From the IMG/VR virus record IMGVR_UViG_3300032328_001489, positions 1 to 26,079 of that record: a DNA stretch of 26,079 bases. One strand, given 5' to 3'. A program made the position numbers and the translations under genes. Below, piece by piece: positions 2 to 26,079 of the stretch. Positions within the stretch are counted from its first letter, which is position 1. Each line of letters opens with the position of its first letter. Below the pieces are notes generated by a model. The model searched no databases, had not been told where the DNA came from, and saw nothing but the letters and a program-made list of their open reading frames with translations. The stretch comes from a virus. Its lineage: Duplodnaviria > Caudoviricetes.

Positions 2-178
2 ACATCAACTCCTACACCAACAGGAACTGCAGCTGAAACGCCAACTCCTACCGCTGAACCAACATCTACTCCAACACCTACATCAACTCCTACACCAACA
101 GGAACTGCAGCTGAAACGCCAACCCCTACCGATGAACCAACATCTACTCCAACACCTACATCAACTCCTACACCAACA
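2..178 (+). repeat. 78-bp (26-codon) in-frame tandem repeat, about 2.3 copies visible
   Basis: Units begin at 2, 80 and 158 (acatcaactcctacaccaaca...); the two full copies differ at 2 positions. Confidence 0.9.
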
Positions 179-545: not shown

Positions 546-552
546 TATTTAT
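546..552 (+). promoter_or_regulatory. TATTTAT putative phage (late) promoter of the holin-like gene
   Basis: Same heptamer precedes at least 13 genes in the window. Confidence 0.6.
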
Positions 553-573
553 TGGTAAGTAAATTACCAAAAT

Positions 574-834
574 ATGAACAAATTTTTAGCAGCAATCAAA
601 AGCTTATTTTCAGATGAGCACGGAGTAATCTCCATGAAACGTCTTTGTGGTTTATTATGTACCATCTCTTTGACAGTTACATTATACCAAAACAGTTTCA
701 GTGAACAACATTACGCACCTTCAAGAGAATTGGTAGATGCGGTTGCATTATTAGCATTCGGTTGTCTAGGTTTATCAAGTGTTGATAAAATCTGGGGAAA
801 GAAACAAAAAGACACAAGCTCAGAATCTGAGTAA
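574..834 (+). CDS. small two-TM membrane protein, holin-like
   Basis: 86 aa; SMKRL motif, two hydrophobic segments (LCGLLCTISLTVTLY; AVALLAFGCLGLSSV), charged C-tail. Holin call is inference. Confidence 0.55.
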   Translation: MNKFLAAIKSLFSDEHGVISMKRLCGLLCTISLTVTLYQNSFSEQHYAPSRELVDAVALLAFGCLGLSSVDKIWGKKQKDTSSESE

Positions 835-3145: not shown

Positions 3146-3351
3146 TTCTTTTTTTGTTTTTTATAGGATTTATTTCCTACAATTTGATATGCCTCGGCTA
3201 AAGACATTACTGCATCATCAATAAGTTTTTTAGCCTTTTTTATTTTTTTTGTTAATGGATGACTAACTAAGTGGTCGTCTATCATACATGTTTGTACATG
3301 TAATCTATCCATTAATTCTAAATAATGACCATCGTTTATTTTATTTTTCAT
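3142..3351 (-). CDS. hypothetical protein
   Basis: 69 aa; 4-nt ATGA overlaps with both neighbours. Confidence 0.75.
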   Translation of the reverse strand: MKNKINDGHYLELMDRLHVQTCMIDDHLVSHPLTKKIKKAKKLIDDAVMSLAEAYQIVGNKSYKKQKKK

Positions 3352-4674: not shown

Positions 4675-4724
4675 ATAAATAAATATCACGGACAAGAACT
4701 AAAAGATACTTTTATAAATATTTT

Positions 4725-6292: not shown

Positions 6293-7135
6293 TTACGCAA
6301 GTAATTTATAATATTCTTTGAAATGTTTGATTCTGTCAGGTAATCCGATAGTCCCTCCGTTTACTCTTTTAGTAATCTTGGTTACAACTAAATCACTGGC
6401 ACCTTCATCTGCCATTTTATGTAATCCGTTTTTACTGAAGAACCAAGCAGCGGATAATAACGCATAATGTGTTGCCACTTTATCAGGATTTGCTGTCATG
6501 TCCTCGTTGATTGCTTTACCGAATGCGGTATAATTGTCTTTACCTGTTAATTGGATATAACCTCTTCCACGAAATTTATATCCATCTCCAGTAGACTCAG
6601 GACCATTACCCATTCTTCCACCATAAACTCTACTTGCAATTTTTTGTGGATTTCTTTGATATGATTCTGCTAAACCAGATTCTTTAAAGTATTTTGAAAA
6701 AATACCTCTGAGACCACTTGCGGAGTAGTTTAGATTTTCTTGGGTTGCTCTAAATCCACCACTTTCATGACCACACTGAGCTAAAAAGTGTGCAAGTCTT
6801 AGTGGTGTATTGATTTCAAATTTAGCCGCTGTGTCAGGTATTTGAGCAATTACTGCATCAGGAATATGACCCCTCAGGTTCTCTAATTTTAATCCGCCTA
6901 CAGATGCAATTGGCTTAACAACAGGTACAGAAGGTTCAGTTATCAATTCTTGAGAACCAAACATTTTATTCCAAGTACCTTCACCAACAATACCATCGGC
7001 TGCAAGGTCATTATCGATTTGCCATTTTTTTACTGCTTTTTCAGTTCCAGGTCCAAAAGCACCATCGGCACTAAGACCTAATTTTTGTTGGAGTTTTTTA
7101 ACGTCATCTCCTCTTGACCCAATTTTTAGTAACAT
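6293..7135 (-). CDS. endolysin: N-terminal peptidoglycan-binding domain plus GH19 (chitinase/lysozyme-like) catalytic domain
   Basis: LKIGSRGDDVKKLQ..DGAFGPGT..DGIVG PG-binding motif; AHFLAQCGHES, ENLNY, GRGYIQLTG and TKRVNGG GH19 motifs. Confidence 0.95.
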   Translation of the reverse strand: MLLKIGSRGDDVKKLQQKLGLSADGAFGPGTEKAVKKWQIDNDLAADGIVGEGTWNKMFGSQELITEPSVPVVKPIASVGGLKLENLRGHIPDAVIAQIPDTAAKFEINTPLRLAHFLAQCGHESGGFRATQENLNYSASGLRGIFSKYFKESGLAESYQRNPQKIASRVYGGRMGNGPESTGDGYKFRGRGYIQLTGKDNYTAFGKAINEDMTANPDKVATHYALLSAAWFFSKNGLHKMADEGASDLVVTKITKRVNGGTIGLPDRIKHFKEYYKLLA

Positions 7136-7174
7136 AGTAATTTACATTTACTATAAATACTTTTATAGTTGGGT

Positions 7175-7381: not shown

Positions 7382-7478
7382 GATTATGATTTCAATGTCA
7401 TAATAATTTCAAAAAATCCCAATTTTATAGAAAAATAGTCAAGTTAATAGTATTTATTATTACCAAGATACTATCGCA

Positions 7479-7973
7479 ATGAATAAAGTTTTTCTATTCG
7501 TTATGAGTGCACTTTTATGTGTATTCCCTCATAATAATTCACAACAAACTCAAGAGATATGGGTGGATGCTGTCACAAACAAAATCCAAATAGGGTCTCT
7601 TGCAGGTAATCGAAACTTAGAGTTCGGTGTAAGAAATATCGTTGAAGAATTCTTACAAGAAAAAGACTATGAACTTAATCCCCAAGCAAAAAATAAACTA
7701 TCCATCGAGTTAGTTTATTTGGACGTGCTCAAAACAAAATCTAACGTATCCGTTTTCCACAAAAACGAAGAATCTGTTGTAATCAGACTCAAGGGTACAT
7801 TAAAATCAGATAATAAAAAAATAAAAGAGGTGATTGTCGAAGAGGAATCATCCGAAATCTCTATGTCCACTTTAATTGTGGATAACGGAGGTAAATTCAA
7901 CCAAACGTCGTTAAGTAATGCAATCAAAAAAGCTAGCGATAAGTTGGTGACTAAAATATTTGAAACAAAATAA
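7479..7973 (+). CDS. exported short CsgG-like protein (paralog of 11715..12434)
   Basis: Signal-peptide-like N-terminus; shares GV.NIV.E.L and KFNQ(T/S)..S...KKA with the 11715 protein; TATTTAT at 7451-7457. Confidence 0.6.
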   Translation: MNKVFLFVMSALLCVFPHNNSQQTQEIWVDAVTNKIQIGSLAGNRNLEFGVRNIVEEFLQEKDYELNPQAKNKLSIELVYLDVLKTKSNVSVFHKNEESVVIRLKGTLKSDNKKIKEVIVEEESSEISMSTLIVDNGGKFNQTSLSNAIKKASDKLVTKIFETK

Positions 7974-7977
7974 AAAA

Positions 7978-10089
7978 ATGAAGAAATTTTTAACTTTAGG
8001 ACTTTTATTAATGTCCTTAACATCATTTAGTCAAATTAAATTTAAGTTTCCTGACACAAGAGTTCTTACCGATATTAATGGTGGAGTTATTGATAGAGGA
8101 GACCAATTCGACGTTATGGTTCACGCGAACGGTAATGGAGATGCAACCACAAGACAATTAATGTTTGACTTTCAGTACGACCAAACAAATTTTGAGGTAA
8201 TCTCAATTAACCACACCGGTACGGGTGGAAATGGTGGAGTACTTCCTGCAGGTTCAAATGTACAATTATCATGGCAGAATTATCCTAATTATACTTACGC
8301 AGGAAATAGTACTTTTACAAACGGAACACAAAGATATGTTTCTAATGCATCTTACACTTATAACCCTAACGGAGGGTCGAGTGCAATTCTTAGAGCTACT
8401 TTGACTTGGGCAACAAATTCGGCAATGCCCTACAACAGTTATTCACAAATAATAATTGTAAGATTTAGATTAAAGGCAGGTTCTACATCAAATTCATTTA
8501 ATCCCATTAAATTAAACTTTGTTGCGGGATGGAATGGTCAAGGAGTTGGTGTTGCAACTACAATGGATACACCATTATCAACTGAGGTTATAATGAATCA
8601 AAACACTGGTAAACTTGTAACAGCTAAAGTTGATATAAGTTCTAATTTACTTGCATTATCAGATGTCAAAGTTTCCTTCAGAGATACTCTTAGTGGTATC
8701 GGACAATTGTTTAGTGTTTTATCTAATGGTAATGTTGATATTAATCAATCATTGTTAGCAGAAAACAAAGTTTATGAAGTGTCTGTTATGCATAGTTTAG
8801 ATAAAACATATGCAATATACAACGGAGCAATTACAATATCAGACTTCACCACAGCACAAAGTGAATTTACATCAATGGGTTTAGATGGTAGTAATGGTCA
8901 AATATTAAAAACAGGTCAATCATTATATGCTGCAGACATCAACAGGAATAAAATTATAGATGGTGGTGATTTACCAAGACTATTAGGACAAGTTGTTGGA
9001 ATAGATACACTTGTAACTATTCCAACAGGATATGCTATGGGTAGTAATGGATTTATGAGTTTACCTACTTGGAGAGCAGTAGATGCAACAAGTATAGGGG
9101 GTCAGGTTGAATGGTGTATTGTTAATGTTGATGGATACGGTTCGGGACAAGCAAAAGTTTACATTGATATGAGAGAATTTAACGGAACGAATACATTACC
9201 TGAAGATATTAAAAGTTTACAACTATTTGATTTGTATTCAGGTCCTGTTGAATTTGTTAGTAAAGACGCATCATGGGCTTTCTACAAAGTACCATCAAGT
9301 TTTACAACAATATCAACTTCAACATTTGCTCCTTACATTAGAACTATGGGTAATAATGATTTTGGTATTAGAGCAGAATTTACATTCAATACAAGTCCTT
9401 CTACTTCATGGGGTTCAATAACATCTTCTAATTGGAAGAACATAACATACCCTAAAACATATGTTAAGACAGGAGTATCAGGAACAAACGAAATTGTTGA
9501 TTTGAAATACCTTTTGTGGGCTGATGTAAATCGTTCACACTCGTCACAAGTTGTTACTAGTTCAAATGGTACTAGCACTGTTCAAACAAATGCTGTTAAT
9601 AGCTTAATGACTAATACCGCATTTATGAGTATGTCAACACAGGCATCATCATTTATTAATACACCGAATGATGTTTCATCAATCGATGTTAATCTATTTA
9701 ATATAACAGTAACATCAAATAATGTTGAAATACCTGTATCACTTAATACTAATGGTATTTCAGTTGGAGGATTACAATTTGAATTTCAATACGACCCATC
9801 AAAAATTAAATTTGAGGAGTTGAAGTCAGAGGTTCCTAACTCTTGGTATGTTTTTGTTAATTCAAAAGACGGAAAAGTTAAATTCGGTGCTATTGACCAA
9901 AATAACAAACCAATAAACGGAACTAATATACCGTTCAAGTTGAAATTCTCAACAGTGGGAAGTGGGGTTGACATTTTAACCTCAGTTAAAGTTTCTCCAA
10001 CTATGGATGCGAGTGATTCCAAAGGAGTTCAATTAGGAATTAATTTAAATTCAACACAAATAAAATTAACAGGATATAAAAACTTTTAG
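7978..10089 (+). CDS. secreted cohesin/dockerin-domain protein (703 aa)
   Basis: Signal peptide MKKFLTLGLLLMSLTSFS-Q; cohesin-like ends (GDQFDVMV..FDFQYDQ; VEIPVSL..GGLQFEFQYDPSKIKF); dockerin-like Ca loop AADINRNKIIDGGDL. Confidence 0.7.
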   Translation: MKKFLTLGLLLMSLTSFSQIKFKFPDTRVLTDINGGVIDRGDQFDVMVHANGNGDATTRQLMFDFQYDQTNFEVISINHTGTGGNGGVLPAGSNVQLSWQNYPNYTYAGNSTFTNGTQRYVSNASYTYNPNGGSSAILRATLTWATNSAMPYNSYSQIIIVRFRLKAGSTSNSFNPIKLNFVAGWNGQGVGVATTMDTPLSTEVIMNQNTGKLVTAKVDISSNLLALSDVKVSFRDTLSGIGQLFSVLSNGNVDINQSLLAENKVYEVSVMHSLDKTYAIYNGAITISDFTTAQSEFTSMGLDGSNGQILKTGQSLYAADINRNKIIDGGDLPRLLGQVVGIDTLVTIPTGYAMGSNGFMSLPTWRAVDATSIGGQVEWCIVNVDGYGSGQAKVYIDMREFNGTNTLPEDIKSLQLFDLYSGPVEFVSKDASWAFYKVPSSFTTISTSTFAPYIRTMGNNDFGIRAEFTFNTSPSTSWGSITSSNWKNITYPKTYVKTGVSGTNEIVDLKYLLWADVNRSHSSQVVTSSNGTSTVQTNAVNSLMTNTAFMSMSTQASSFINTPNDVSSIDVNLFNITVTSNNVEIPVSLNTNGISVGGLQFEFQYDPSKIKFEELKSEVPNSWYVFVNSKDGKVKFGAIDQNNKPINGTNIPFKLKFSTVGSGVDILTSVKVSPTMDASDSKGVQLGINLNSTQIKLTGYKNF

Positions 10090-10091
10090 TT

Positions 10092-10463
10092 ATGAAAAGA
10101 ATAGATAAAATTTTAGGTTTAGGTTTTTTAGTTACCCTTTTGGCGATTAGTTGTAGAAAGGTGGACTTACCACAACCACAAATTATTGATTTAGGAAATC
10201 AATCAACATCAACAGCAATTAAATCAATTGCTCAAACAGGGAATATTGTAACCGCTGAGTTCGAAACAACAGTGGGTGCAAAATATTCAGTACAAATAAT
10301 ACCTTTTGGGAGCGAAATACCATTGAAAAAAGAAGGGTTTACCGCAACTGAAGGTATTACAAAAAAAGTGTACGATTTATCAGGGTTATCAAAAAAAGAC
10401 TATGACTTAGTGTTCATAGACATCAGCGGTAAGGAAGTAAAATATCCAATCGTAATAAAATAA
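10092..10463 (+). CDS. lipoprotein whose mature part resembles a T9SS C-terminal sorting domain
   Basis: Lipobox LAIS-C; C-terminal YSVQI...YDLSGLSKKDYDLVF...KYPIVIK pattern. Confidence 0.55.
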   Translation: MKRIDKILGLGFLVTLLAISCRKVDLPQPQIIDLGNQSTSTAIKSIAQTGNIVTAEFETTVGAKYSVQIIPFGSEIPLKKEGFTATEGITKKVYDLSGLSKKDYDLVFIDISGKEVKYPIVIK

Positions 10464-10480
10464 AAATAAAAATAAAAAAC

Positions 10481-10801
10481 ATGTCAGAAGAAGTAGAAAA
10501 ATCAGAAAGTACCGGTGGTTCATTAAAGAATATAATCATCGGTTTCATCTCAACTATCACTTTAGGTGTTGGGGGATGGATAACAACTAAATTAACAGGC
10601 GGTGAGGAAGAAAAACCTGCAACTCAACAAGCAGCACCGGTAATCAACATTACAAATTCTAATCAACAAGCTGCAGGTAAGACTGTAATTGTTAACGGAG
10701 GTGGTGGAAATGGTGATAAATCATCAAATCCAGCACCAGCACCTAAACCTAAACCTAAAAAAGACGGTGACGAATTTAAAGAGGAAGCACCTAAATGGTA
10801 A
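10481..10801 (+). CDS. single-TM protein with Pro/Lys-rich tail
   Basis: TM IIIGFISTITLGVGGWI; PAPAPKPKPKK. Confidence 0.75.
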   Translation: MSEEVEKSESTGGSLKNIIIGFISTITLGVGGWITTKLTGGEEEKPATQQAAPVINITNSNQQAAGKTVIVNGGGGNGDKSSNPAPAPKPKPKKDGDEFKEEAPKW

Positions 10802-10805
10802 TTTT

Positions 10806-11348
10806 ATGAGTAGTAATCAACAACAAACAGGATTTAAAGATTTATTATTTTCGGTAATGCAAAGAAGATGGTTTATTACTGCCATCGTATTATTCACCTT
10901 TTTTGGTACAATCCTTACAATCTTTATGGCAATTTTGGGTAAGACACAAATGTCAGGTGAATGGAAAGAACTGTTACTTTTATTGTTGGGAGCATTCATC
11001 GGAAGTTATGGTAAAATCATAGACTACTGGTTTAGTGACCAAGATAAAGACAAAATGTTAGTTCAAAAAATGGACGAAGAAGATGGAACTTCATTATCAG
11101 ACACAGGAGCGGGTGGACCTAAAACTCCGTTACCAAGTATCATAGTTAGTCCCATAGAAAATACCACAGATAAAGGAGTCGAAATAGACGAAGATGGAGA
11201 TGGTGTGATGGATGGAATCGATAACGATGGTGATGGTACTATCGATGAATATTTCGACCATAGAAACTGTCAACATGTTTGGGGTGACCAAGATGGTGAC
11301 GGTGATGAAGAGTGTTTAATTTGCGGTAAAATAAAAGACGTAGAATAA
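10806..11348 (+). CDS. two-TM membrane protein with DxDxDG Ca-binding repeats and C-terminal Cys/His motif
   Basis: Start re-assigned to ATG 10806; DEDGDG, DNDGDG, DQDGDG; CQH...CLIC. Confidence 0.75.
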   Translation: MSSNQQQTGFKDLLFSVMQRRWFITAIVLFTFFGTILTIFMAILGKTQMSGEWKELLLLLLGAFIGSYGKIIDYWFSDQDKDKMLVQKMDEEDGTSLSDTGAGGPKTPLPSIIVSPIENTTDKGVEIDEDGDGVMDGIDNDGDGTIDEYFDHRNCQHVWGDQDGDGDEECLICGKIKDVE

Positions 11349-11359
11349 AATTAAAAATT

Positions 11360-11590
11360 ATGAAAACAATAAGTTTAAACAAATTGAATGAAATTATAAT
11401 ATTAGGTTTTCTTAAGTTATGTATACTTTGGGTAGTATCTGCACTTTCCTTCCAAATATTTTGTATGTATTTGGAATTTTCAGGACAAGAACAAAGACAA
11501 CGTGACATAATTAACAAAATAGATTGGAAATTTGATGGAACATTCAAAAATAATCCTGATAATATTTGGTACAAATCACCTAAAAAATAA
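11360..11590 (+). CDS. small membrane protein
   Basis: 76 aa with one long hydrophobic segment; inside the operon. Confidence 0.65.
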   Translation: MKTISLNKLNEIIILGFLKLCILWVVSALSFQIFCMYLEFSGQEQRQRDIINKIDWKFDGTFKNNPDNIWYKSPKK

Positions 11591-11594
11591 TTTT

Positions 11595-11708
11595 ATGGCA
11601 AAGACTCAAGAAATAGTGAAATTCATACTAACAGTAGGAATTGTTGCATTTGGATTAGTTATCCTTTCATTCGGATTTAGAGTGATATTAACTCCATTTT
11701 TAAATTAA
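11595..11708 (+). CDS. 37-aa single-TM peptide (not in ORF track)
   Basis: MAKTQEIVKFILTVGIVAFGLVILSFGFRVILTPFLN*; fills the gap between 11590 and 11715. Confidence 0.65.
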   Translation: MAKTQEIVKFILTVGIVAFGLVILSFGFRVILTPFLN

Positions 11709-11714
11709 ATTAAA

Positions 11715-12434
11715 ATGAAAAAATTATTATTTTTCTCGGCAGTATTATTGTTGAGTAAGGGAGCTTTTTCCCAAACTATAGGTAAAACCAAAACGGAAGA
11801 TTACAAAGCTTCGTTTGAAACAAAAAGCGATATCTCACAATTTTTGGAATATGACGGACCAAAAAAGAATATTCAACTTTTAAAATGCGGTATCAATGAT
11901 GAGATGTACGAAATGTATCCTGAACTAAAAGAAAAAAGAGTTGGTTTGGGTGTTACAAATATTGTATTAGAATATCTTGATAATTTAAATCGTTTTGAAT
12001 TTACAGAAGACAAAACAGAAATAAAAAACAGAATGGTTAAACAATTCCAAGCTTCTCAAGCAGGAATTTCTGAAAACAAATTGGATGGTAGAGGTAAGAT
12101 TAAATTAGCTCATTACTTTGTTGAGATTGAATGTTATGACTACTCTGTTTCTGAAGATGAAACCATTAATTTAAAAGACGGTGTAAAAAATATGTTGGTA
12201 ACACGTATTGGTTTACAAGTTAGATTTACAAATGCGGAAAACGGTACAATAATAGCGGCATCTGGATTAGGAGAAGCAAAGACGACAAGAGAATTAACTT
12301 TCTTATCTGATGCAACTGTTGACCCAGTTAAATTCAACCAATCTACAATTAGCATTTCAACCAAAAAAGCTTTGGATATTGCATGTGCTAACATTTTAGG
12401 TAAAATGGTTAAAAAAGGAATATTCATTAAATAA
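11715..12434 (+). CDS. CsgG/HfaB-family outer-membrane assembly/transport protein
   Basis: Signal peptide ..GAFS-Q; GLGVTNIVLEYL..LNRF, AHYFV, IGLQVRFTNAENGTII..SG.G pattern of the CsgG fold. Confidence 0.75.
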   Translation: MKKLLFFSAVLLLSKGAFSQTIGKTKTEDYKASFETKSDISQFLEYDGPKKNIQLLKCGINDEMYEMYPELKEKRVGLGVTNIVLEYLDNLNRFEFTEDKTEIKNRMVKQFQASQAGISENKLDGRGKIKLAHYFVEIECYDYSVSEDETINLKDGVKNMLVTRIGLQVRFTNAENGTIIAASGLGEAKTTRELTFLSDATVDPVKFNQSTISISTKKALDIACANILGKMVKKGIFIK

Positions 12435-13744
12435 TGAAAAAATGGATTGGTGTATATTTGTTTTTACTTTTTTTTCTGAAAGGTTCAGGACAAGTTGTAA
12501 CGCAAACATACATTGACCCATGTGATTTAAAGACTTATGTAGTGTCAATACCCATCACTAATAATAGTGGTGTTACAGTTATCATTAGAGGTAAATCCAA
12601 AGTTTTTACTTACGCACAATTTACAAGTGGTGAGGTTGACCAATGGATAAAAACTATATTTGCAGCTCCATGTCCATCAAGTTTAGTAGTTCAACAAACA
12701 GTAACAGCTGCGGTATCTCAGGCGGCATCTGCGGCAGCAAGTTCGGCAGCTTCTTCAGCGGCATCCGCGGCAGCATCCTCCGCCGCAAGTTCAGGTGCAT
12801 CTGGAGCTGCATCATCTTCGGCGTCCAATGCAGCATCATCGTCAGCGTCCAGTTCATCTTCCTCTCAATCATCCTCATCATCTGGGGAGTCCTCATCATC
12901 GGGAGGAAGTTCAGAAAGTAGTTCATCTTCAGAAAGTAGTTCATCCTCAGAAAGTAGTTCAGAATCAAAATCTGAAAGTAAAAGTGATGAAAAGAAATCT
13001 GACGAAAAAAAAGAAGAAAAAAAGAACGATAAAAAAGAAGAAAAGAAAAAGGCTGTTGCTGCAAACCCAATGTTAGTCGCTTCTGACCTAACAACAGCTC
13101 AAGGACCCGACCTGAGATATAACGCGATAGTATCTTTTGGTGTAAGTAAATCGTCAATGGCTGGGAACGAGAGCTGGGGTGCAACAGCACTAATATGGAG
13201 CTCATTAAGACAATTTGCTTTGAGTGGTGGATATACCAAAATGGATTTTAATAAGGGTCAACTTAATGCAATCCACTCATACTCCGTAACAGGGGCATAT
13301 TTGGAAGGAAATTATATGAGTCTTGTTGGTTACACCTATATCAAACCACACCCTAAATTCGGTACCTACGGGTATAATTTAGGAGCCATAACTTTATTGT
13401 TAAAAGATACTAAAATAATAAACAGTAAAACGGGAGAAACAAAAGAAATATTCAATACGTCTTTCTCAACATCAGTGGTTTCGTTTTGGACGAAACCATA
13501 TCCTTATAATAAAAAGATTACCTTATCCCCACAGGTATTCTTAATGAATTCACCGATAAGTTGGAATTCTAAAACAGGAGAAACAACGGTTGATAGACAA
13601 TTTGGATTTTTGGTTGGGTCGTCATTTGACTATAAAATAAGTAAGAGATTTGGGTTTAGTTTCAACTACAAACTCGCAGGTTCAACTCTGAAGGGAGCAC
13701 CATTACTTAGTAATTTCTTGATAGGTTCAAGAGTAATACTTTAA
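12434..13744 (+). CDS. exported protein with Ala/Ser-rich and charged linker and C-terminal beta-barrel-like domain
   Basis: Signal peptide ..GSG-Q; Cys pair in N-domain; about 100-aa A/S then E/K linker; amphipathic strands ending NFLIGSRVIL. Confidence 0.7.
   Translation: MKKWIGVYLFLLFFLKGSGQVVTQTYIDPCDLKTYVVSIPITNNSGVTVIIRGKSKVFTYAQFTSGEVDQWIKTIFAAPCPSSLVVQQTVTAAVSQAASAAASSAASSAASAAASSAASSGASGAASSSASNAASSSASSSSSSQSSSSSGESSSSGGSSESSSSSESSSSSESSSESKSESKSDEKKSDEKKEEKKNDKKEEKKKAVAANPMLVASDLTTAQGPDLRYNAIVSFGVSKSSMAGNESWGATALIWSSLRQFALSGGYTKMDFNKGQLNAIHSYSVTGAYLEGNYMSLVGYTYIKPHPKFGTYGYNLGAITLLLKDTKIINSKTGETKEIFNTSFSTSVVSFWTKPYPYNKKITLSPQVFLMNSPISWNSKTGETTVDRQFGFLVGSSFDYKISKRFGFSFNYKLAGSTLKGAPLLSNFLIGSRVIL
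12911..12961 (+). repeat. 18-bp in-frame tandem repeat (SESSSS) x~3
   Basis: tcagaaagtagttcatc(t/c) at 12911 and 12929, partial copy at 12947. Confidence 0.85.
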
Positions 13745-13748
13745 CACT

Positions 13749-14378
13749 ATGAAAAAGATATTAGACATTAGACATTTTATAATTTTGGGTTTGATAATAA
13801 CATTATTGGTATTACTAAAATCAGACAACAAACCAAGAATAAAAGAAATAATCAAAGAAGTTCCGTCGGAACCAATTCACGATACAATATCTGTAGAAGT
13901 AGAAGTTCCGTATGAGGTGAAAGGAGATGATATCTATCACGATACAACAATATATGTCCCAACATATGTACAAGTTGATACGGCAGCAATTTTACAAAGT
14001 TTTTATTTTACCAACTCATTTATCGACACACTAAAATTGAATAATAATCAAGGGTTTGTATATTTGAATCAAACAGTTTCTGAGAATAAAATTGCATCAA
14101 GAAATTGGTCAGCAACTGTTAAGCCTAAAATAGTAAGAGAACCAGCACCTGAACCACCACCAATCAAAAACCAAGTATTCTTGGGTATTAACGGTGCAAT
14201 AAGTAGAGAAGATTGGGTGAACTCATTGGGAATGGGAGTTATACTTAAAACAAAAAAAGACCACCTATATCAAGTCGGAGCGGGTGTTGCAAATAGAACT
14301 GTAGATGGAGTATCAGGTGAATTTAGACCTTTCCTTAGTGGTGGGGTTTATTGGAATATTAAAGTTAAAAAAGATTAG
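13749..14378 (+). CDS. N-terminally membrane-anchored protein with HDT/DT repeats and C-terminal beta-strands (spanin-like candidate)
   Basis: TM FIILGLIITLLVLL; IHDTI, YHDTT, VDTA, IDTL; Pro linker; ends GGVYWNIKVKKD. Confidence 0.55.
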   Translation: MKKILDIRHFIILGLIITLLVLLKSDNKPRIKEIIKEVPSEPIHDTISVEVEVPYEVKGDDIYHDTTIYVPTYVQVDTAAILQSFYFTNSFIDTLKLNNNQGFVYLNQTVSENKIASRNWSATVKPKIVREPAPEPPPIKNQVFLGINGAISREDWVNSLGMGVILKTKKDHLYQVGAGVANRTVDGVSGEFRPFLSGGVYWNIKVKKD

Positions 14379-17121: not shown

Positions 17122-17132
17122 AGTGATTTTTG

Positions 17133-17217
17133 CAGAGAGTTAGGGATTCGAACCCCAGAAGCTGTTACACTTGCCAGTTTTCAAGACTGGTGCCATCAAC
17201 CACTCGGCCAACTCTCT
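17133..17217 (-). tRNA. trnS: tRNA-Ser(UGA), CCA not encoded
   Basis: Acceptor AGAGAGT/ACTCTCT plus G discriminator; anticodon arm CCAGT-CTTGAAA-ACTGG; long variable arm; GGTTCGAATCC T-arm. Confidence 0.95.
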
Positions 17218-17719: not shown

Positions 17720-17762
17720 ATAATATAAATATGTGTTCGTATCAAAAAAGATTAGAACCATT

Positions 17763-18238: not shown

Positions 18239-19233
18239 TGTATAATGATGTTTTAGATAGAGCCAATAAATTTTTTGAAAATCACATTTTCGAGATGTAT
18301 TATCTTTTCGATTCGGAAGGTGAACCTATTGCACCAACAAATGTTAAAATTAAACTCACAGGTGTAAAAGATTTCATTTCGATGGGTGATTATAAACCCT
18401 TCATATTATACACTGCCTACATCTTACCATCAAACGAACAGTCTGATAAATTTAATTCTGTATTAAGTACTCACTTTGGTTCTGAAACAGAAATTAAGAC
18501 ATTTGACAAAGGTGCTTACAGTAATTTCGAGTGGGTCATGACAAAAAAATTATCTGAATTTTTAAAATATTTTTCATTACCAGATGCGGTACTCACTAAA
18601 GTTGTGAATGAAGTTGAGCCGATGAAAATAAATGAAAGTTTAATTGTTGAATCTAAAGTAGATGGTGCTGTAAGGAAAGTGGTTAAAGACATTTTGGAGT
18701 TGATTAAATTCCAAAGGAATGGAGAATTTGTTTTACCAGAAGACGCCAGAATCGAAGATAATACTTATAAGTTTTCGAATTTACCTGAATTCACAATTGA
18801 GTTAGAAGTTATAGAAAGTGATGTTGTTGATAGATTTGACGTTGAATGTGCTTATTATAAGGAAGAGGATGTGATAACGGTTGATATTGTTATTAATCCT
18901 GATGTAAGGTATTCGATACTATACGATATTGTTGGTGAGTTAAATGAACAGTTAAGACATGAAATGGAACACATGATTCAAAATGTTCGTGGAGTGGAAT
19001 TACCTGACAAAGAGCCAAAGTCACCTTCAAAATATTATTCACAACCACATGAAATCGGTGCACAAATTGCTGGATTCAAAAGAAAGGCAAAGATAACAAA
19101 ACAACCATACGAAAAAGTGGTTAGAAAATGGTTCGAAGAAAACAAACACAAACATAGATTAAACCCAAAACAATCCGAAAAGATTATTCAAAAATTATTG
19201 GACGCATCAAATGGTATCAGAAAAATTAATTAA
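18238..19233 (+). CDS. two-domain protein with C-terminal HExxH zinc-metalloprotease-like domain
   Basis: LRHEMEHMIQ and YYSQPHEIGA; TATTTAT at 18226-18232. Confidence 0.75.
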   Translation: MYNDVLDRANKFFENHIFEMYYLFDSEGEPIAPTNVKIKLTGVKDFISMGDYKPFILYTAYILPSNEQSDKFNSVLSTHFGSETEIKTFDKGAYSNFEWVMTKKLSEFLKYFSLPDAVLTKVVNEVEPMKINESLIVESKVDGAVRKVVKDILELIKFQRNGEFVLPEDARIEDNTYKFSNLPEFTIELEVIESDVVDRFDVECAYYKEEDVITVDIVINPDVRYSILYDIVGELNEQLRHEMEHMIQNVRGVELPDKEPKSPSKYYSQPHEIGAQIAGFKRKAKITKQPYEKVVRKWFEENKHKHRLNPKQSEKIIQKLLDASNGIRKIN

Positions 19234-19930
19234 TAAAATTTTAGTTGGACAAACGTTCCAAGAAAATACTTTTGAGTATACATTCGAGAATATTCAATTA
19301 AGTGAAAACGAATTTGCTTATGATGTTTCAGTACATGTTAATCTTCCAAATCCAAATCAATCATATGTTGCGGAGGTTTTTATTAGTGATATTCACAATT
19401 ATTTGTCTAACATGTGGCAATACATTGGAGAATCTTTTTCGTATTCCTTGATTGTTACTACAAATGCACCGCATAAACTTGAGGCTTATGTTAGTCCTGA
19501 AAAATATGATGAGATTGTTGAAGCGGTAAATGCCAAATACAGACATGTTGAAATAAAAGGAGGTCATAGTTTTGATGTTGATTTATCTCCATTAAAAAAT
19601 CAAAAAGGTTTTTATGTTATGCATGACAATTATCTTGAGTTTTATTTTACTGTTAGATTGGGTGGATTCAAATATGATGGCAAAACTGTCGAAGTAAAAC
19701 CTGAAATGATTAATGAATTTTGTGGTATTTTGGCGGATGAATTATATGATTCCGATAACTTTAAAGTTGCAATTGAAAATACAATTTATGAAATATTAGA
19801 ACCTGAAATTCACATAAAAGATGTTGAAGTTTATATCAATGCTCTATTCCATGTTACTCATTATAATGGAGCAAAGGTTGAACCTCATTGGTATCTCAGT
19901 TCAATTGACCCGAACGTATTCTTTATTTAA
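19211..19930 (+). CDS. hypothetical protein
   Basis: 239-aa ORF. Confidence 0.8.
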   Translation: MVSEKLINKILVGQTFQENTFEYTFENIQLSENEFAYDVSVHVNLPNPNQSYVAEVFISDIHNYLSNMWQYIGESFSYSLIVTTNAPHKLEAYVSPEKYDEIVEAVNAKYRHVEIKGGHSFDVDLSPLKNQKGFYVMHDNYLEFYFTVRLGGFKYDGKTVEVKPEMINEFCGILADELYDSDNFKVAIENTIYEILEPEIHIKDVEVYINALFHVTHYNGAKVEPHWYLSSIDPNVFFI

Positions 19931-20543
19931 ACTTTCTGATAAGTTTTGTCATCAATGCTGATAAAGTTTCAGCACCCATTATAACCACTCCCGAGGCAAT
20001 CAATCTTTCAAGAATTATTTTTCCAGTTTCTCTTGGGTCACCACTATTTGAAATATAATGTTGAATATCTGTAATGATTGGAATTAAAAAGGCATATGAG
20101 ACAGTATCCAAAAATGTACCAACACTAATCTTGATACCATTTAAAAACCCAATAAATGCATCTTCTAATTCTTCAGACTTTTTTAAAACAATATTGAATG
20201 TATTCTTTAAACCTTCTTCATCAATTTTTTTGATAAGTTCTTTAGTTGTTTTTTTATTATTGAAAAATAAAATTGATGCAATTGCAGCTAAAATAAGATA
20301 ACGTTGGTCATCAGTAACATTAAAACTACCATTACGAATGAAGTTATCTAATGGTAAAATTAATCCACCAACAGACGTACCCCAAGTCAAAAGCATTTTT
20401 ATATTTAAATCGTATTTTTTACCAACTCTGTTAACAACTTCTTTTGTAAACGAATAAAGTCGTTTCATATAGTTTGTCATCTTAGATTCGTCTTGTTCTC
20501 TAAGAATTGCTCTCAGTTGATTTTCATTAATAATAAAGTCCAT
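19923..20543 (-). CDS. hypothetical helical protein with hydrophobic segments
   Basis: 206 aa; N-terminal MDFIINENQLRAILREQ; TATTTAT at 20551-20557 (minus). Confidence 0.8.
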   Translation of the reverse strand: MDFIINENQLRAILREQDESKMTNYMKRLYSFTKEVVNRVGKKYDLNIKMLLTWGTSVGGLILPLDNFIRNGSFNVTDDQRYLILAAIASILFFNNKKTTKELIKKIDEEGLKNTFNIVLKKSEELEDAFIGFLNGIKISVGTFLDTVSYAFLIPIITDIQHYISNSGDPRETGKIILERLIASGVVIMGAETLSALMTKLIRKFK

Positions 20544-21522: not shown

Positions 21523-21740
21523 AATAATCCTCCTTCTTTTTTCCAATTTTCTTCTACTTGAGTATTATTTAACTCTTTTAGAAGGTCTAAGAATGTTTTT
21601 TTTAATTTATTATATTTTTCTTCACTTTCATTTTTACCCAACATATAAGATTGATACATACAACTATCTATAGACCTTTTATCTAAAAAGGAATGATGTG
21701 GTATGGTGTGTTGATATATTTCTTCTAATTTTTCTCTCAT
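21519..21740 (-). CDS. hypothetical protein
   Basis: Start re-assigned to ATG 21740 (ATGA overlap with the ligase stop). Confidence 0.65.
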   Translation of the reverse strand: MREKLEEIYQHTIPHHSFLDKRSIDSCMYQSYMLGKNESEEKYNKLKKTFLDLLKELNNTQVEENWKKEGGLL

Positions 21741-22822
21741 AATTCCACCTCCTTTTGCCAAAATGGTTTTGAATATTTTGGTTTGATTAATTTCCAAATT
21801 ATTTCATCAACTTTTTCATTATTTTTATTCCACATTGCAAACATAATTGCATGTAAAACTTCTTCTTGTTTCATTACAAATTCGGCAAATTCTTTTTTAG
21901 TTGGTTCAGGGTCCACATCACCAAATTTTCCATAACGGAATCCATCGTGAAGTTTTCCAGCTCTTTCTCTTAATTGGTAAGAACCATACCTAAGGTCTTT
22001 AATTGTGGTTCTAACCCATTTGTCAAATTCATCGGGAACTCTATCAAGTAATTCATCAATGTTTTTTCCGTCTTTAAGGTATTCCCATATGTCCACATTT
22101 GAGAATCCTGTTAAAATCCTATGGAGACGAACGTATTCTTCCCCCTTTATCTTCATTCTGAACCCATTTCTGAAACGAATGACATAACCTTCTCGGTCTT
22201 TGGATATTAAAGACTTGAGGGTCTTATAATCGTTAACCGCATCGTATTTCTTAACAACAGCCATTCTAGTTTCATTGCTGATGTATAACAAAGAAGTGTA
22301 ATCTAACTCTTTTCCTGAAGAGTTGTTTATCATAGACAAAACAACCAAAGATTCCTCATCACCATATCCACAAACAATTCTGTTTTCAGGATATATTATT
22401 TCCACCAAAGTGGTATATCCTTTCGGTATTGGTTCAAAGTTGTATTTCATAAGAATTTCTCTTCCTTTAATTGCTTGTTCGGAAACAAATGAACCTTTGG
22501 TTGCTAACATCCATTTTCCTTGATACCAAAATAAAATCCCTAATGAACCGTCCAATTTTTCAAAAACTTCAAATGGTTCATTTGGAATTTCTTCTGGATT
22601 GTGTTCTTCCATATTGAAAAATTTATCAAAACCTTTGGCAATAACATTTCCTTCTTGGTCCAAAATAAGACCACGGCATGCTTTGGTAATTTCATCCCAT
22701 TTATTTTCATACTGACAAGTACGAGAATAGTTGTAGATAGAAATAGGAAGAGTTGGATGGTCATTTTTGACTACCAACCCATCACTGATGTATTTGTTCA
22801 ATATGTTTAAATCGAAGGTCAA
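21737..22822 (-). CDS. rnlA: RNA ligase, T4 Rnl1 (RnlA) family
   Basis: CRGLI, KFFN, motif I EKLDGSL, ATKGSF, motif IV EGYVI, motif V KIK..EY..LH. Confidence 0.92.
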   Translation of the reverse strand: MTFDLNILNKYISDGLVVKNDHPTLPISIYNYSRTCQYENKWDEITKACRGLILDQEGNVIAKGFDKFFNMEEHNPEEIPNEPFEVFEKLDGSLGILFWYQGKWMLATKGSFVSEQAIKGREILMKYNFEPIPKGYTTLVEIIYPENRIVCGYGDEESLVVLSMINNSSGKELDYTSLLYISNETRMAVVKKYDAVNDYKTLKSLISKDREGYVIRFRNGFRMKIKGEEYVRLHRILTGFSNVDIWEYLKDGKNIDELLDRVPDEFDKWVRTTIKDLRYGSYQLRERAGKLHDGFRYGKFGDVDPEPTKKEFAEFVMKQEEVLHAIMFAMWNKNNEKVDEIIWKLIKPKYSKPFWQKEVEL

Positions 22823-22823
22823 T

Positions 22824-23042
22824 TTATTTCTTAATTAACATGTTTGTGTTTGCGATTGGAAAACGAGCTACTGGAACTTTTTTTTCTTCTACTGAAGTTG
22901 CGTCGATTTGCATTACTTGATAATAACCGTCTTCCATTTTTACGGTTGGGACATCATTAAATGTGTAAAGAATGTTTCCTTGTTCTACTCCCTCATAAAG
23001 TTTTGCTGACTTTGTTGATGTGTTGAATACTAATGTTTGCAT
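22824..23042 (-). CDS. hypothetical protein
   Basis: 72 aa, tightly packed in the operon. Confidence 0.75.
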   Translation of the reverse strand: MQTLVFNTSTKSAKLYEGVEQGNILYTFNDVPTVKMEDGYYQVMQIDATSVEEKKVPVARFPIANTNMLIKK

Positions 23043-23052
23043 GTGTTTGTTT

Positions 23053-23286
23053 TTATAATTTTTCGTATTTTATTGTGTCATCTTTTTTTATATCGTCAAA
23101 GTTTCTCCAAAGAGTAAATTTTCTACCTACTCTCGGTAAACTATGGTGTTCTCTATGTCCACACCAACGGCATTCTCTAACTACTACTCTAATAACATCC
23201 CTCCCTTGTGGATGATTTTCTACTTTGTGCTTTTCTTTACGGTACTCCCAATTATGAAGACCAATATAGCAAAATGGGTTTATCAT
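23053..23286 (-). CDS. small Zn-binding protein (DUF1660-like)
   Basis: FCYIGLHNW...RECRWCG. Confidence 0.6.
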   Translation of the reverse strand: MINPFCYIGLHNWEYRKEKHKVENHPQGRDVIRVVVRECRWCGHREHHSLPRVGRKFTLWRNFDDIKKDDTIKYEKL

Positions 23287-23287
23287 A

Positions 23288-23701
23288 TTATAATTTAATT
23301 TCGAATCTGTTTTTCATAATTTGGAGCTTGTCTTCAGGTACCCCATGAACATTTTGCCCACCGTGTCTATTTTCAATAATCAAAGATACAACTTTGTATC
23401 CATATTTCACAGCTAATTTGAAATAATCTTCCATTTCCCATTCTTGTGTAAAAGTATTTGAAACAGCAATTTCAGGATAATATTGTTCATTATTTTGGTG
23501 GTCAATCATCCTTGTTTCGACCTCGTTTTTACACCAAGCATGAGCTTCTTTTAATTTTGATGGGTCAAAATTGTAATTACCTTCTTTATCGTAGAAAAAC
23601 TTATCGGCTTCACAAACAGCATAATCATTCCAAATTGCCGATGCAAATGATGTCTTACCTGAACCAGGTAAACCTCTTACTAAAAATAATACTCCACTCA
23701 T
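23288..23701 (-). CDS. P-loop polynucleotide-kinase-like protein (AAA_33 type)
   Basis: RGLPGSGKT, CEAD.FF, AH.WC, VSNTF and NVHGVP motifs. Confidence 0.85.
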   Translation of the reverse strand: MSGVLFLVRGLPGSGKTSFASAIWNDYAVCEADKFFYDKEGNYNFDPSKLKEAHAWCKNEVETRMIDHQNNEQYYPEIAVSNTFTQEWEMEDYFKLAVKYGYKVVSLIIENRHGGQNVHGVPEDKLQIMKNRFEIKL

Positions 23702-23702
23702 A

Positions 23703-23888
23703 TTAATATCCTTTTTGAAATGTCAATCCGTATGAAAAGTTAAGAAAAGAAATTTGAATTCCAAAGGCTGGTGAAGTAACACCTGTCTCAAGGAAGTAAT
23801 ACTTATCGTACCAAATTGAAATACAAGGTATTAACCAATATTTTCCTCTTATTCTAACAAACCTATTATTTTCTACAAACCATTTCAT
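23703..23888 (-). CDS. hypothetical protein
   Basis: 61 aa, ATGA-coupled. Confidence 0.65.
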   Translation of the reverse strand: MKWFVENNRFVRIRGKYWLIPCISIWYDKYYFLETGVTSPAFGIQISFLNFSYGLTFQKGY

Positions 23889-24253
23889 AATTTTTCATTT
23901 AAATTGTTATCAATATTCCATATATTAAATGGGTCAAATTCATTTTCTTTTTCCCATCCATACAATCTCATACTAATTTCATTTCTTGTTTCCAAAGATA
24001 GTGATTTTGCAAGAACTTCTCTTAAATTTTGATGAATCATTTGAACCATACTAACAAAATTTGAACCTTCATTCTTTAAATCTTTAATTTCGTTAATTTT
24101 AGATTGTACATATTCTATCTCTAATTGTTCTTGCCTCTCATCCCACATATGGGGTAGAGTAAAAGACCTCCAAAATCGAATACAAATTTCGCGTAATTCT
24201 TCAAAGCTTTCGTCTTTTGGAGGTGTATAGAATAATTTAACTGACTTATCCAT
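23885..24253 (-). CDS. hypothetical protein
   Basis: 122 aa, overlaps both neighbours. Confidence 0.75.
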   Translation of the reverse strand: MDKSVKLFYTPPKDESFEELREICIRFWRSFTLPHMWDERQEQLEIEYVQSKINEIKDLKNEGSNFVSMVQMIHQNLREVLAKSLSLETRNEISMRLYGWEKENEFDPFNIWNIDNNLNEKL

Positions 24254-24920
24254 TATCTTTATTTACAAGGTCATCTAAATGGTGGTCGTTTTGCATTTCA
24301 GAAAGTTTATCTCTGTGTCTTAACAAAGGTACTACTTCACGATACACGTTGTAAGGTCTAAATTCAGGGTGACCATCCATTCCAACATCAATTCTTTGAC
24401 CTTTACCAAATCTTAAATTTGTTGGTAAGTGACAGTGACCGTGTAAGTGCATTACACCTTTATTAAGACCATCCCAAGAACTTATGGGATAGTGCATCAA
24501 ACGAAATTTAAATTGTCCCATCTCAAGTGTATTATAGTGGGATACGGATTTGAATAATCCCTGAGCACCATCTCTATTGTTTTCTATATGGTGGTCGTGA
24601 TTACCTAAAACTAAGTGAATATTTTTACATATGAGTCTATCCCAAAATTCACGTATTTGGTCATATCCACCAAAAGACCAGTCACCAAGGTGAATTAATA
24701 TGTCATCTTGACCAACAACTTCATTGATGTTATTGACTATGGAAGCATTCATTTTTTCTATGGTTGAAAAGTCACGAGTCTGAGATAAAGGTATTTCACC
24801 TTCTTGGGTTCTCCAAGCTGTAACCCCACGACATATATTCTTGTGAGAATAGTGGGTGTCAGAAGTAATCCATACATTAACTTCTGGGATATTTTTGGTA
24901 TCTACAGGTAGTTTTATCAT
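24246..24920 (-). CDS. calcineurin-like metallophosphoesterase
   Basis: TSDTHYSH, HLGD, GNHD, MHYP, HGHCH, DVGMD; TATCTTCG element 4 nt upstream (24925-24932). Confidence 0.9.
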   Translation of the reverse strand: MIKLPVDTKNIPEVNVWITSDTHYSHKNICRGVTAWRTQEGEIPLSQTRDFSTIEKMNASIVNNINEVVGQDDILIHLGDWSFGGYDQIREFWDRLICKNIHLVLGNHDHHIENNRDGAQGLFKSVSHYNTLEMGQFKFRLMHYPISSWDGLNKGVMHLHGHCHLPTNLRFGKGQRIDVGMDGHPEFRPYNVYREVVPLLRHRDKLSEMQNDHHLDDLVNKDNG

Positions 24921-24936
24921 AAAACGAAGATAAGAA

Positions 24937-25191
24937 TTATTCTGTAATTAAAAAAACTGGATTTTGGTCTCCAGCAAATAAACCTAAAATGTTGTATTCG
25001 TAGAATTCAACTGCATCGATAGGAGACATTCCGTCTCTTTCTTCAAGAATATCAAGGATTTTGTTTTTGGAGTATAAGATTCTCGGCCCATTACCGAATT
25101 CTTCAACAATTCCGATGATTGCGTCATCCAAACCGTCCAAAATAACGGCTCCTTCAGCATTTTCGTGAATATCGTCTATGTTGATTGTCAT
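24937..25191 (-). CDS. conserved-type small acidic phage protein
   Basis: Start re-assigned to ATG 25191; LDGLDDAIIG..YS..KI..DA.EF.EYNI.G...P.F. Confidence 0.8.
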   Translation of the reverse strand: MTINIDDIHENAEGAVILDGLDDAIIGIVEEFGNGPRILYSKNKILDILEERDGMSPIDAVEFYEYNILGLFAGDQNPVFLITE

Positions 25192-25197
25192 ATAAAT

Positions 25198-25281
25198 AAA
25201 AAAAAAACAAGTGATTTCAATTCGAGGCGATAAGTAAATTACCAAGATACTATCAAAAGGAAGGAGAGGGTCACTTGTTTC
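25198..25281 (-). ncRNA. candidate trans-acting antisense small RNA 1
   Basis: Promoter directly upstream; 10-bp terminal stem AAACAAGUGA/UCACUUGUUU; 10-U tract; loop complementary to three gene starts in the window. Confidence 0.7.
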
Positions 25282-25285
25282 TATA

Positions 25286-25317
25286 CAATGGTAGAATTAA
25301 TTCATAAAAATGTCAAA
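25286..25317 (-). promoter_or_regulatory. host-sigma-type promoter of sRNA 1
   Basis: Minus strand TTTGACA-N17-TACCATTG (TTTG-N20-TAnnATTG). Confidence 0.7.
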
Positions 25318-25360
25318 CATAAAAAATGAAAATTTTAAAGTATTTATAATAAAATAATTT

Positions 25361-26079
25361 ATGAAAGGATATTTTGGATTAGGTCAATTGTCACCGGCAG
25401 ATAAGTCTGACATCTTAGACCAACACAAACATGTATATGATGGTTACAAAACAATGTTACCACACGTTCCCAATACACAACCATTGTACGTACAGGATTT
25501 TGCTAACGACAAAAATGGTATCACAGTTAATAACAAGGGTGAAGTTAAACATTATACCAACGTAGGAATTAATGAAAGCATTGAGGAAGGTAAAATTTGT
25601 GAACAATGCGGAGGTCAAATGAGTGAAGGTATCTGTGAACAATGTGGTGGTGGTATGATGAACGAAGGTGGTGAGTGTTCAGAATGTGGTGGTATGATGT
25701 ATGAAGGAGAATGTTCTGAATGTGGATACAAAGGACAAATGGATGAAGAAACAGGACATTTGGATGACATCTATAATGTAAGAGATTTAAATCTAAAAAA
25801 TGGCGATTTTGATTATGTTGAAGGTGGTGGTAACGATTATGGTACATTTGAAAAAATGCATCATATGAAAGAACAAGCAGATGATTATGTTAATTATGAA
25901 GATAATTTAGATGAGCAAGGTGGAAATGCTGATGATATGGATGTGGATGATGTTGAACCAGCGTTCGATTTTGAATCGGAAGGACCAGGAATGGGTGATG
26001 CTTATCCTGTAAATGAGGAAGGTAATATGGATGAACCTGAAATTACTTACGACGCTATGGAGTCAGCATTCAACGATGA
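25361..26079 (+). CDS. acidic protein with four CxxCG motifs, 3'-truncated (not in ORF track)
   Basis: MKGYFGLGQLSPADKSDILDQH... open to the window end; CEQCG x2, CSECG x2; TATTTAT at 25341-25347. Confidence 0.85.
   Translation, partial: MKGYFGLGQLSPADKSDILDQHKHVYDGYKTMLPHVPNTQPLYVQDFANDKNGITVNNKGEVKHYTNVGINESIEEGKICEQCGGQMSEGICEQCGGGMMNEGGECSECGGMMYEGECSECGYKGQMDEETGHLDDIYNVRDLNLKNGDFDYVEGGGNDYGTFEKMHHMKEQADDYVNYEDNLDEQGGNADDMDVDDVEPAFDFESEGPGMGDAYPVNEEGNMDEPEITYDAMESAFND

Follow-up and report, generated by a model that had tools for sequence, protein, structure and literature searches.

A candidate small RNA complementary to three dispersed lysis and envelope gene starts in bS21-encoding jumbo phages

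The stretch of DNA analysed here, called the window throughout, is a 26-kb virus record (26,079 nt) with an AT content of 68%. Close to its right end a candidate small RNA is found on the minus strand, between a phrog_13182 gene and a divergently oriented gene. The loop of this RNA is complementary to the starts of three genes, namely a holin-like gene, an endolysin gene and the first gene of a probable envelope operon (Table 1). The targets begin at 574, 7135 and 7479 and the RNA lies at 25198-25281, so the targets are 18-25 kb away from it.

Table 1. Position of the candidate RNA, its predicted target sites and the neighbouring genes in the window
Feature	Position	Strand	Remark
Late-promoter motif TATTTAT, holin-like gene	546..552	+	putative late class
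Target site 1, holin-like leader	556..574	+	-18 to +1
Holin-like membrane protein, 86 aa	574..834	+	no Pfam, PHROG or NCBIfam family
Endolysin, PG_binding_1 + glycoside hydrolase 19, phrog_181	6293..7135	-	domains over curated cut-offs
Target site 2, across endolysin start codon	7127..7145	-	-10 to +9
Late-promoter motif, endolysin gene	7153..7159	-	motif match
Late-promoter motif, 7479 operon	7451..7457	+	motif match
Target site 3, leader of gene 7479	7459..7475	+	-20 to -4
Exported protein, 164 aa, CsgG/PelC/LptE-type fold	7479..7973	+	first gene of operon; model pLDDT 71
Probable operon of exported, membrane and lipoprotein genes	7479..14378	+	putative lytic role
phrog_13182 gene, directly downstream of U-tract	24937..25191	-	possible read-through product
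Closing stem, 3' arm, and U-tract	25198..25214	-	terminator-like, no canonical short hairpin
Candidate small RNA, ~84 nt, long irregular hairpin and U-tract	25198..25281	-	5' end predicted
Antisense loop region	25231..25254	-	19-nt core 25233-25251; 11-nt apical loop 25237-25247
Closing stem, 5' arm	25271..25281	-	variable sequence, pairing kept
-10-like element TACCATTG	25286..25293	-	RNA promoter
-35-like hexamer TTGACA	25311..25316	-	RNA promoter
Divergent late-class gene, selector of relatives	25361..26079	+	TATTTAT at 25341

A sequence-only reading made before this analysis had placed a minus-strand promoter with a 17-nt spacer ahead of the RNA, and such a promoter is found: TTGACA (25316-25311) and TACCAT (25293-25288) are 17 nt apart. 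This is the best of 8 promoter-like sites in the region 24000-26079, where shuffled sequences average 10.1 sites, i.e. such sites are not in excess. The 84-nt minus strand folds at -15 kcal/mol (z -2.9; 1 of 200 shuffles was as good), and in the predicted fold 11 bp form the closing stem around an inner hairpin, with a U tail behind them. Both structural features read earlier from the letters, i.e. paired ends followed by a U-tract and a core displayed in the loop of an internal hairpin, are thus recovered in the fold. A terminator scan that requires a loop of 3-8 nt does not list 25198..25214. There is no ATG-started frame inside the 84 nt and one frame is open throughout; a protein-coding frame is disfavoured because indels occur among the copies of the element. 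The element had not been recognised as a known family, and in agreement with this Rfam 15 has no match over 25198-25281 up to an E value of 5, nor is there any match at gathering score at the RNA loci of four relatives.

The endolysin is the only target with a named lysis family. The designation holin-like for gene 574 fits in size and hydropathy, but not by a family hit in Pfam, PHROG or NCBIfam; taken together with a near-threshold Atlas lead (DUF2644, 0.91, 38% of members), these properties suggest a holin-like product. Two hydrophobic segments are seen in 45 of the 57 homologues, and the window's own protein has one above threshold. The model of the 7479 protein resembles 6lqh_A, which we take to be CsgG itself (Z 13.2, rmsd 2.6 over 128 residues), with PelC and Cj1090c tied within 1 Z and LptE on top in Foldseek; a single-sequence model was discarded (pLDDT 44.5). 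Neither a CsgG Pfam hit nor a lipobox was detected in this protein. In other words, the earlier name "CsgG envelope operon" stands as far as the modelled fold of the first gene goes, but not as a family assignment, and for gene 11715, which has no Pfam, PHROG, NCBIfam or PDB sequence hit, the CsgG label is tentative. The rest of the operon comprises a cohesin-domain gene (7978), a lipobox gene (10092), genes of transmembrane proteins (10481, 10806 and 13749) and a gene of a Ser/Ala-rich protein. Homologues of the operon are found in RNA-lacking phages too.

The window has further features. A tRNA-Ser(TGA) gene (17132-17217, minus strand) adjoins an HTH-HNH endonuclease gene (17216-17761, minus strand), and an RNA-repair-like cluster of RNA ligase, AAA kinase and metallophosphoesterase genes occupies 21737-24920 (minus strand). 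A cREC_REC receiver gene lies near a second phosphoesterase and a NUMOD3 endonuclease at 2804-4695 (minus strand).

The complementarity between loop and gene starts is strongest for two of the three sites. Site 1 (556-574 against 25231-25249) pairs at 18 of 19 positions, and site 3 (7459-7475 against 25238-25254) at 17 of 17, ending 3 nt short of the ATG at 7479. These are the two best non-self matches on both strands of the window, with scores of 18.9 and 18.3, and the next match scores 15.6. None of 200 Markov simulations gave an exact 17-mer, and 2 of them gave a 15-mer, as against the four 15-mers observed; the top-three start-region score of the window was reached by 0 of 500 loop shuffles. 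Both matches, as first noticed by eye in the sequence, are confirmed and above chance. Site 2 (7127-7145 on the minus strand against 25234-25252) is present as it had been described, with 16 of 19 positions paired and one of the three differences being a G-U, but its score in the window (12.3) is background-like, i.e. under several coding-region hits and 4th of 42 starts. The predicted net energies after opening costs are -13.2 kcal/mol for site 1, -12.6 for site 3 and -4.7 for the endolysin. The endolysin site is credible because relatives carry it, not from the window match alone.

The position of the sites relative to the promoters was considered in the complete relatives. TATTTAT lies upstream of 203 called starts in two of these (G001 and G015), and its spacing to the ATG peaks at 4-5 nt (80/203). 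The mRNAs of such genes may be leaderless, with the motif marking the start site, and because of this spacing sites 1 and 3 would begin at about +1. G001 has 95 TATTTAT genes, of which 58 were scanned; among those that could be named are genes of the portal, sheath, tube, baseplate, head protease, fibres and endolysin, together with a single nuclease gene, and we read TATTTAT as a putative late promoter class. The TTGAC/TTTAC class (19 genes of G001 and G174) includes gp32, Hsp20 and Hc1 and none of the named structural genes, which points to a non-late class and, for the RNA, to a presumably pre-late promoter. A looser "early" list of 32 genes is mixed and contains a helicase, a ClpP-like protease and a second endolysin-family hit. 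TAnnTTTG, the Bacteroidetes promoter element, is present in only 19 of 88 RNA copies. The RNA promoter, assigned to host polymerase in the earlier reading, could be read by a phage sigma factor instead of the host's, since all 5 complete relatives encode a sigma-70-family protein (a sigma-70 region 2 protein of ~270 aa, with two hits in G174). Within the window, TATTTAT with 4-5 nt spacing is seen at 546, 7153, 7451 and 25341 and at many other positions. In the literature searched, no description of a TATTTAT promoter in bS21-encoding phages was found.

The 24-nt core is present without mismatch in 16 viral contigs, of which several measure 317-321 kb. The clade that carries the RNA consists of ~320-kb jumbo phages encoding bS21, whose gene is present in all 5 complete relatives (G001, G015, G174, G034 and G035). 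In the accessible part of their paper, Chen et al. 2022 describe huge phages that encode bS21 and whose predicted hosts are Bacteroidetes, and the main text has no mention of small RNAs, antisense or promoters (PMC9723584). As bS21 is common to the relatives and to those phages, the hosts of the present clade are probably Bacteroidetes as well; the phages may belong to clades a-e of that study, for which a bS21 gene, a genome of ~320-330 kb and the position in the TerL tree are diagnostic. The INPHARED phages have no match to window positions 25150-25420, i.e. no cultured representative was found. In GTDB there are 6 exact matches to the 19-mer core, none with promoter, stem and U-tract, and they were treated as chance.

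Relatives were chosen through the protein encoded by the neighbouring gene at 25361, i.e. independently of the RNA. The element is found at the same place in 27 of the 80 loci picked in this way (18 of 49 distinct ones), and a metagenome scan contributed 106 further stretches. A covariance model (R1), based on 6 pairs only and dominated by sequence, was run over 138 distinct records; it gave 5 further true copies and one hit to a target site (G112). No remote variants were among the R1 matches listed for these records, from which homologues with a different loop could escape, and "without RNA" below means that a record has no R1 hit.

Over all loci, 88 distinct copies pass the stem and U-tract filter. 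The promoter pair TT[GT]A[CT]N-16..18-TAnnnT precedes 87 of the 88, as compared with 69 of 767 background upstream regions, and the late motif TATTTAT precedes none (0/88). Among the 18 distinct copies found through the neighbouring protein, 16 have the 19-nt core without mismatch, and each copy folds to the same shape although the stem sequence is rewritten. Covariation of the stem was computed on a 22-row MAFFT alignment in which one clade is out of register and relatedness inflates the counts. In the outer helix 1, 5 of 8 pairs have changes on both sides (23 cells; 0/500 shuffles), and pairing is 88% as against 35-52% in slid controls. The six inner pairs have 19 G-U cells versus 2 A-C cells, which fixes the RNA strand as minus. 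No both-side change is seen in the inner hairpin in this alignment and its pairing is predicted only; such invariance is expected, because the loop sequence would be locked by its targets. Immediately downstream, 42 of 87 copies have the same gene family, 7 have other genes and 38 have no ATG within 35 nt. These data support the view that the element is an RNA gene with its own promoter, a covarying stem and a U-tract, the terminator hairpin being atypical.

The loop was compared with whole genomes of the relatives. On both strands of the 321-kb genome G001, the top three non-self hits are the starts of the holin-like gene, the 7479-family gene and the endolysin gene; the same three, i.e. holin-like, CsgG-fold (7479) and endolysin, also lead the 394 start regions when these are ranked by duplex energy, a result that 0 of 500 shuffles equalled. 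The holin-like start ranks first in G017, and G174 has a one-base loop variant together with all three sites. The complete genome G015 also has all three sites, but they are weak (ranks 4, 56 and 96 of 98 hits), and its genome-wide target test gave no signal (151/500 shuffles as good). Genome-wide ranking against shuffled controls thus bears out the earlier proposal in G001 but not in G015. A homologue of gene 12434, which lies inside the operon, was considered as a further target and rejected: its start ranks 6th in G001 and is not conserved in the window, G008 and G015. Its match in G001 (170765-170787; L110) scores 13.9 at -18 to +4 and could be a fourth site of the G001 group only.

It is conspicuous that the sites track the RNA, as conserved complementarity in relatives, put forward earlier as a check, would have it. 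The holin-like site is present in 28 of 28 records with the RNA and in 0 of 13 without it (distinct leaders 13/13 versus 0/8), and of the 13 controls 11 include the syntenic place while the other two are 92-100% complete. The corresponding counts are 23/23 versus 0/3 for the 7479-family (CsgG-fold) site, where RNA-lacking controls are few (3), and 24/32 versus 0/10 for the endolysin site. One record was omitted from each tally since its leader was cut or its start unplaceable (G020 for holin-like, G161 for 7479 and G007 for the endolysin). Permutation and Fisher values overstate independence, since the set is made up of related records, many of them fragmentary. The RNA label changes 4 times on a holin tree of 30 rows, at least 2 of these changes being forced. 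Both the RNA-bearing and the RNA-lacking state are found in both holin subfamilies, which are distant homologues only (no BLASTP alignment, HH probability 97%).

The endolysin site spans -12 to +9 across the AUG, and in most records sites 1 and 3 end 0-7 nt from the ATG, with several site-3 duplexes crossing it. The complementarity of site 3 stops upstream of the putative +1, where the next base pairs in 6 of 51 cases, and extends downstream past the searched motif in 43/51 and 39/51.

Covariation between loop and leader, the other comparative check named beforehand, was examined for site 3 in 19 distinct pairs from 30 records; G044 was left out, having no site 3 in the 20 kb covered. RNAs fit their own site 3 better than permuted pairs do (2/20,000). 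A clade with two extra loop bases (G018/G023) has two extra bases in site 3, G021 has a perfect RNA/site-3 match of 24 nt, and for the sites of G174, G045, G004 and G025 the cognate RNA comes first or second. The RNA of the window comes 11th of 19 for its site, that of G001 15th and that of G003 19th, and in 6 of the 19 pairs the other RNAs on average fit better than the cognate one. The signal thus lies in a subset of pairs.

Viral contigs were also scanned for a late promoter followed by site 3. Of the 103 hits most lie ahead of 7479-family genes and about 10 look like chance. In a second set the gene behind the site encodes a 100-aa membrane/coiled-coil protein, with a lipobox gene and then the endolysin next in line; in a third it is a PAS-domain gene upstream of the endolysin. 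These alternatives account for half of the eight exceptions at the endolysin site, i.e. in G003, G016, G017 and G021 site 3 heads the membrane/coiled-coil cluster upstream of the endolysin. The other four (G013, G171, G172 and G173) have loop changes in the segment complementary to sites 2 and 3, neither of which is present in the genes covered. In the changed-loop records that include a holin-like gene its start is still first (of 191 in G171, of 139 in G173). G013 has the RNA and no site on the endolysin or the upstream cluster. In the alternative clusters site 3 lies 20-75 nt from the ATG, so simple occlusion is unlikely there. G007 has an intact promoter with a clean gap in place of the RNA, so that the promoter runs directly into the downstream gene; the endolysin leader of this phage has no site and the 7479 operon was not found.

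Some observations on these loci are recorded here in their own right. The holin position of G007 (L360 ~2030-2290; G007 21930) is taken by an 81-aa hydrophobic gene with a partial, possibly decaying site, and the G007 endolysin is without the PG-binding part. In G017 (L532, 2544-4382) a membrane/coiled-coil gene, a lipobox coiled-coil gene and a gene with a signal plus a C-terminal transmembrane segment lie directly upstream of the endolysin, and the same cluster is seen in G003, G013, G016 and G021. Its genes have no hit in the family libraries searched, and our reading of the cluster as spanin-like is by anatomy. All five records with the cluster are without the 7479 family. A double PAS-domain gene stands between site 3 and the endolysin in G075 (L504, 2588-3706) and also in G042 and G013, where it is a possible sensory input beside the lysis genes; a polyphosphate kinase 2 gene (L504, 1351-2451, minus strand) is divergent from the site-3 promoter in several relatives. 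In G021 the endolysin tblastn hit (19233-20036) falls in two blocks, reflecting a frameshift, a small insert or an assembly error.

We consider it probable that the element is a trans-acting antisense repressor RNA of a dispersed lysis and envelope regulon. An RNA acting in trans and antisense to holin-like, endolysin and CsgG-type starts had been proposed from the window, and ranking, co-occurrence and covariation now lend it comparative support. The RNA would be transcribed from its pre-late promoter before the late mRNAs and would fold as one long hairpin displaying a single loop of ~24 nt. Overlapping segments of the loop would pair with three late mRNAs encoded kilobases apart, i.e. with ~13-17 nt at the 5' end of the holin-like mRNA, with ~12-17 nt at the 5' end of the transcript of the endolysin-adjacent envelope operon, and with positions -12 to +9 around the endolysin AUG. 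These duplexes would cover short unstructured initiation regions and block ribosome loading. Lysis and envelope proteins would be held down until late mRNA outnumbers the pre-made RNA, and this titration would set a threshold and a delay on lysis. Transcription, the start sites, repression as the sign of the effect and timing by titration are all inferred from sequence. Repression is the simplest outcome because initiation in Flavobacterium, according to the accessible part of the source, depends on an open A-rich region, i.e. an unstructured region with A at -3, -6, -12 and -13 (PMC7797042).

The same RNA and targets could act with another or a mixed sign, pairing at the 5' end protecting the holin-like and operon mRNAs or tuning their ratio. 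We regard this as unlikely. Sites 1 and 3 begin at the putative +1 and are fixed to the promoter and less to the ATG, and FasX, as far as the accessible text goes, is a precedent in that it protects ska (PMC4691137). On the other hand, site 2 spans the endolysin AUG, and a duplex that ends within a few nucleotides of the ATG, as at most copies of sites 1 and 3, is hard to square with initiation when bound.

A role in cis, as leader or attenuator of the gene that follows, with late mRNA ends pairing to the loop to switch termination, appears improbable. Although the same gene family directly follows nearly half of the copies (42/87), the G007 promoter runs straight into that gene without the RNA and the terminator is non-canonical, the loop and its targets stay in the 38 copies without a nearby ATG and in the 7 that precede other genes. 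Nor could a cis switch explain three conserved partners, all of them lysis or envelope genes.

We give very little credence to a DNA-level role of the shared sequence at late promoters, whether as the operator of a phage protein or as a site addressed by an RNA guide, with the copy at 25231-25254 as one more operator or a guide. The sites do lie close enough to TATTTAT (3-5 nt) for a repressor to act there, and the motif follows gene orientation. However, the three sites match staggered loop segments with only about 4-5 nt in common, which leaves neither a shared operator nor a constant guide-PAM register; moreover, the loop is part of a covarying stem that has a promoter and a U-tract of its own, the sites vanish where the RNA is absent, and their extensions covary with the RNA. 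As to a guide system, PF07282 (Cas12f/TnpB) was found in 0 of 5 complete genomes, in a search confined to this one guide-using family. Least probable is that AT-rich leaders and loop match by chance or were inherited together without function: the high AT content of the window, the null result in G015 and the relatedness of the records would allow it, but the simulations of the 17-mer, the loop kept exact in 16/18 copies with rewritten stems, and the recurrence of the site in two holin subfamilies only distantly related to each other and at the head of at least three unrelated operons have already largely refuted it.

A trans-acting antisense repressor remains our preferred reading, and a wider version of it may be entertained, tentatively and with more doubt than belief. 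Here the one RNA would be the master switch of a dispersed lysis regulon, in which each late 5' end carries a tag complementary to the loop of the RNA and the tag marks lysis genes, since it moves onto whichever envelope module adjoins the endolysin; on this view the operon headed by the CsgG/LptE-fold gene would disrupt the outer membrane by a system not described before, alternating with the spanin-like cluster. As the loop is nearly invariant across diverged phages, the RNA could also silence lysis by a superinfecting relative.

Several known systems resemble the proposed one in part. Cis-encoded antisense RNAs of the PAK_P4as15, OOP and sar type were ruled out as models, the targets being kilobases from the RNA. 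Type I toxin-antitoxin antisense RNAs and the lambda S105/S107 dual-start act in cis or beside one gene; they share with the window RNA the suppression, at the RNA level, of a small toxic membrane protein until it is needed, whereas the window RNA would act at a distance on a regulon. As described in the accessible portions of the literature, the c4 antisense RNA of phages P1/P7 (77 nt, trans-acting) is likewise phage-encoded, of similar size and displays its pairing region in loops, blocking translation near a start, but it controls antirepressor synthesis, i.e. immunity, in temperate phages (PMC12197685). The window RNA has one loop for three unlinked late lysis/envelope mRNAs and belongs to apparently virulent jumbo phages. 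PAK_P4as15, an antisense RNA over the endolysin gene of Pseudomonas phage PAK_P4, was also proposed, and there too as a proposal, to be an early RNA delaying lysis via endolysin translation; in the same partial sources it is cis-encoded, ~550 nt long, has one target and is absent from a sister phage (PMC5563952, PMC12197685). The present RNA, in comparison, is predicted to act in trans and on several targets; it is structured, 84 nt long and conserved within a clade. FasX of Streptococcus pyogenes is similarly a single sRNA that pairs with one mRNA at its 5' end and with a second one at the initiation region, but, in the text accessible, it is bacterial, uses separate seed regions and activates by 5'-end pairing (PMC4691137). 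A relation in sequence to the present RNA is not expected. VpdS and PreS are trans-acting phage sRNAs with a role in the lytic cycle, and differ, in the accessible account, by being Hfq-dependent and acting on host genes or host sRNAs (PMC12197685). An Hfq gene was found in none of the 5 phage genomes, by a search whose control, Bacteroides thetaiotaomicron, was also without a hit.

No description of this RNA was found in the openly accessible literature. In Fremin et al. 2023 (PMC10690425) the core is absent from the four supplementary files searched; the RNA could be an unnamed candidate in the alignments of that study.

We note that the scattered lysis genes of jumbo phages make an 84-nt RNA with three predicted targets a testable case of coordination at the RNA level. 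Lysis timing is classically a matter of protein-level holin/antiholin control of a clustered cassette. The proposed RNA adds a multi-target trans-acting sRNA to the biology of virulent phages, in a host group that presumably works without Shine-Dalgarno pairing and Hfq. The loop-complementary tag also points to lysis and envelope genes that had gone unrecognised, including a candidate spanin substitute. If the master-switch reading were true, lysis genes would be coordinated without a single holin/endolysin/outer-membrane-disruption cassette.
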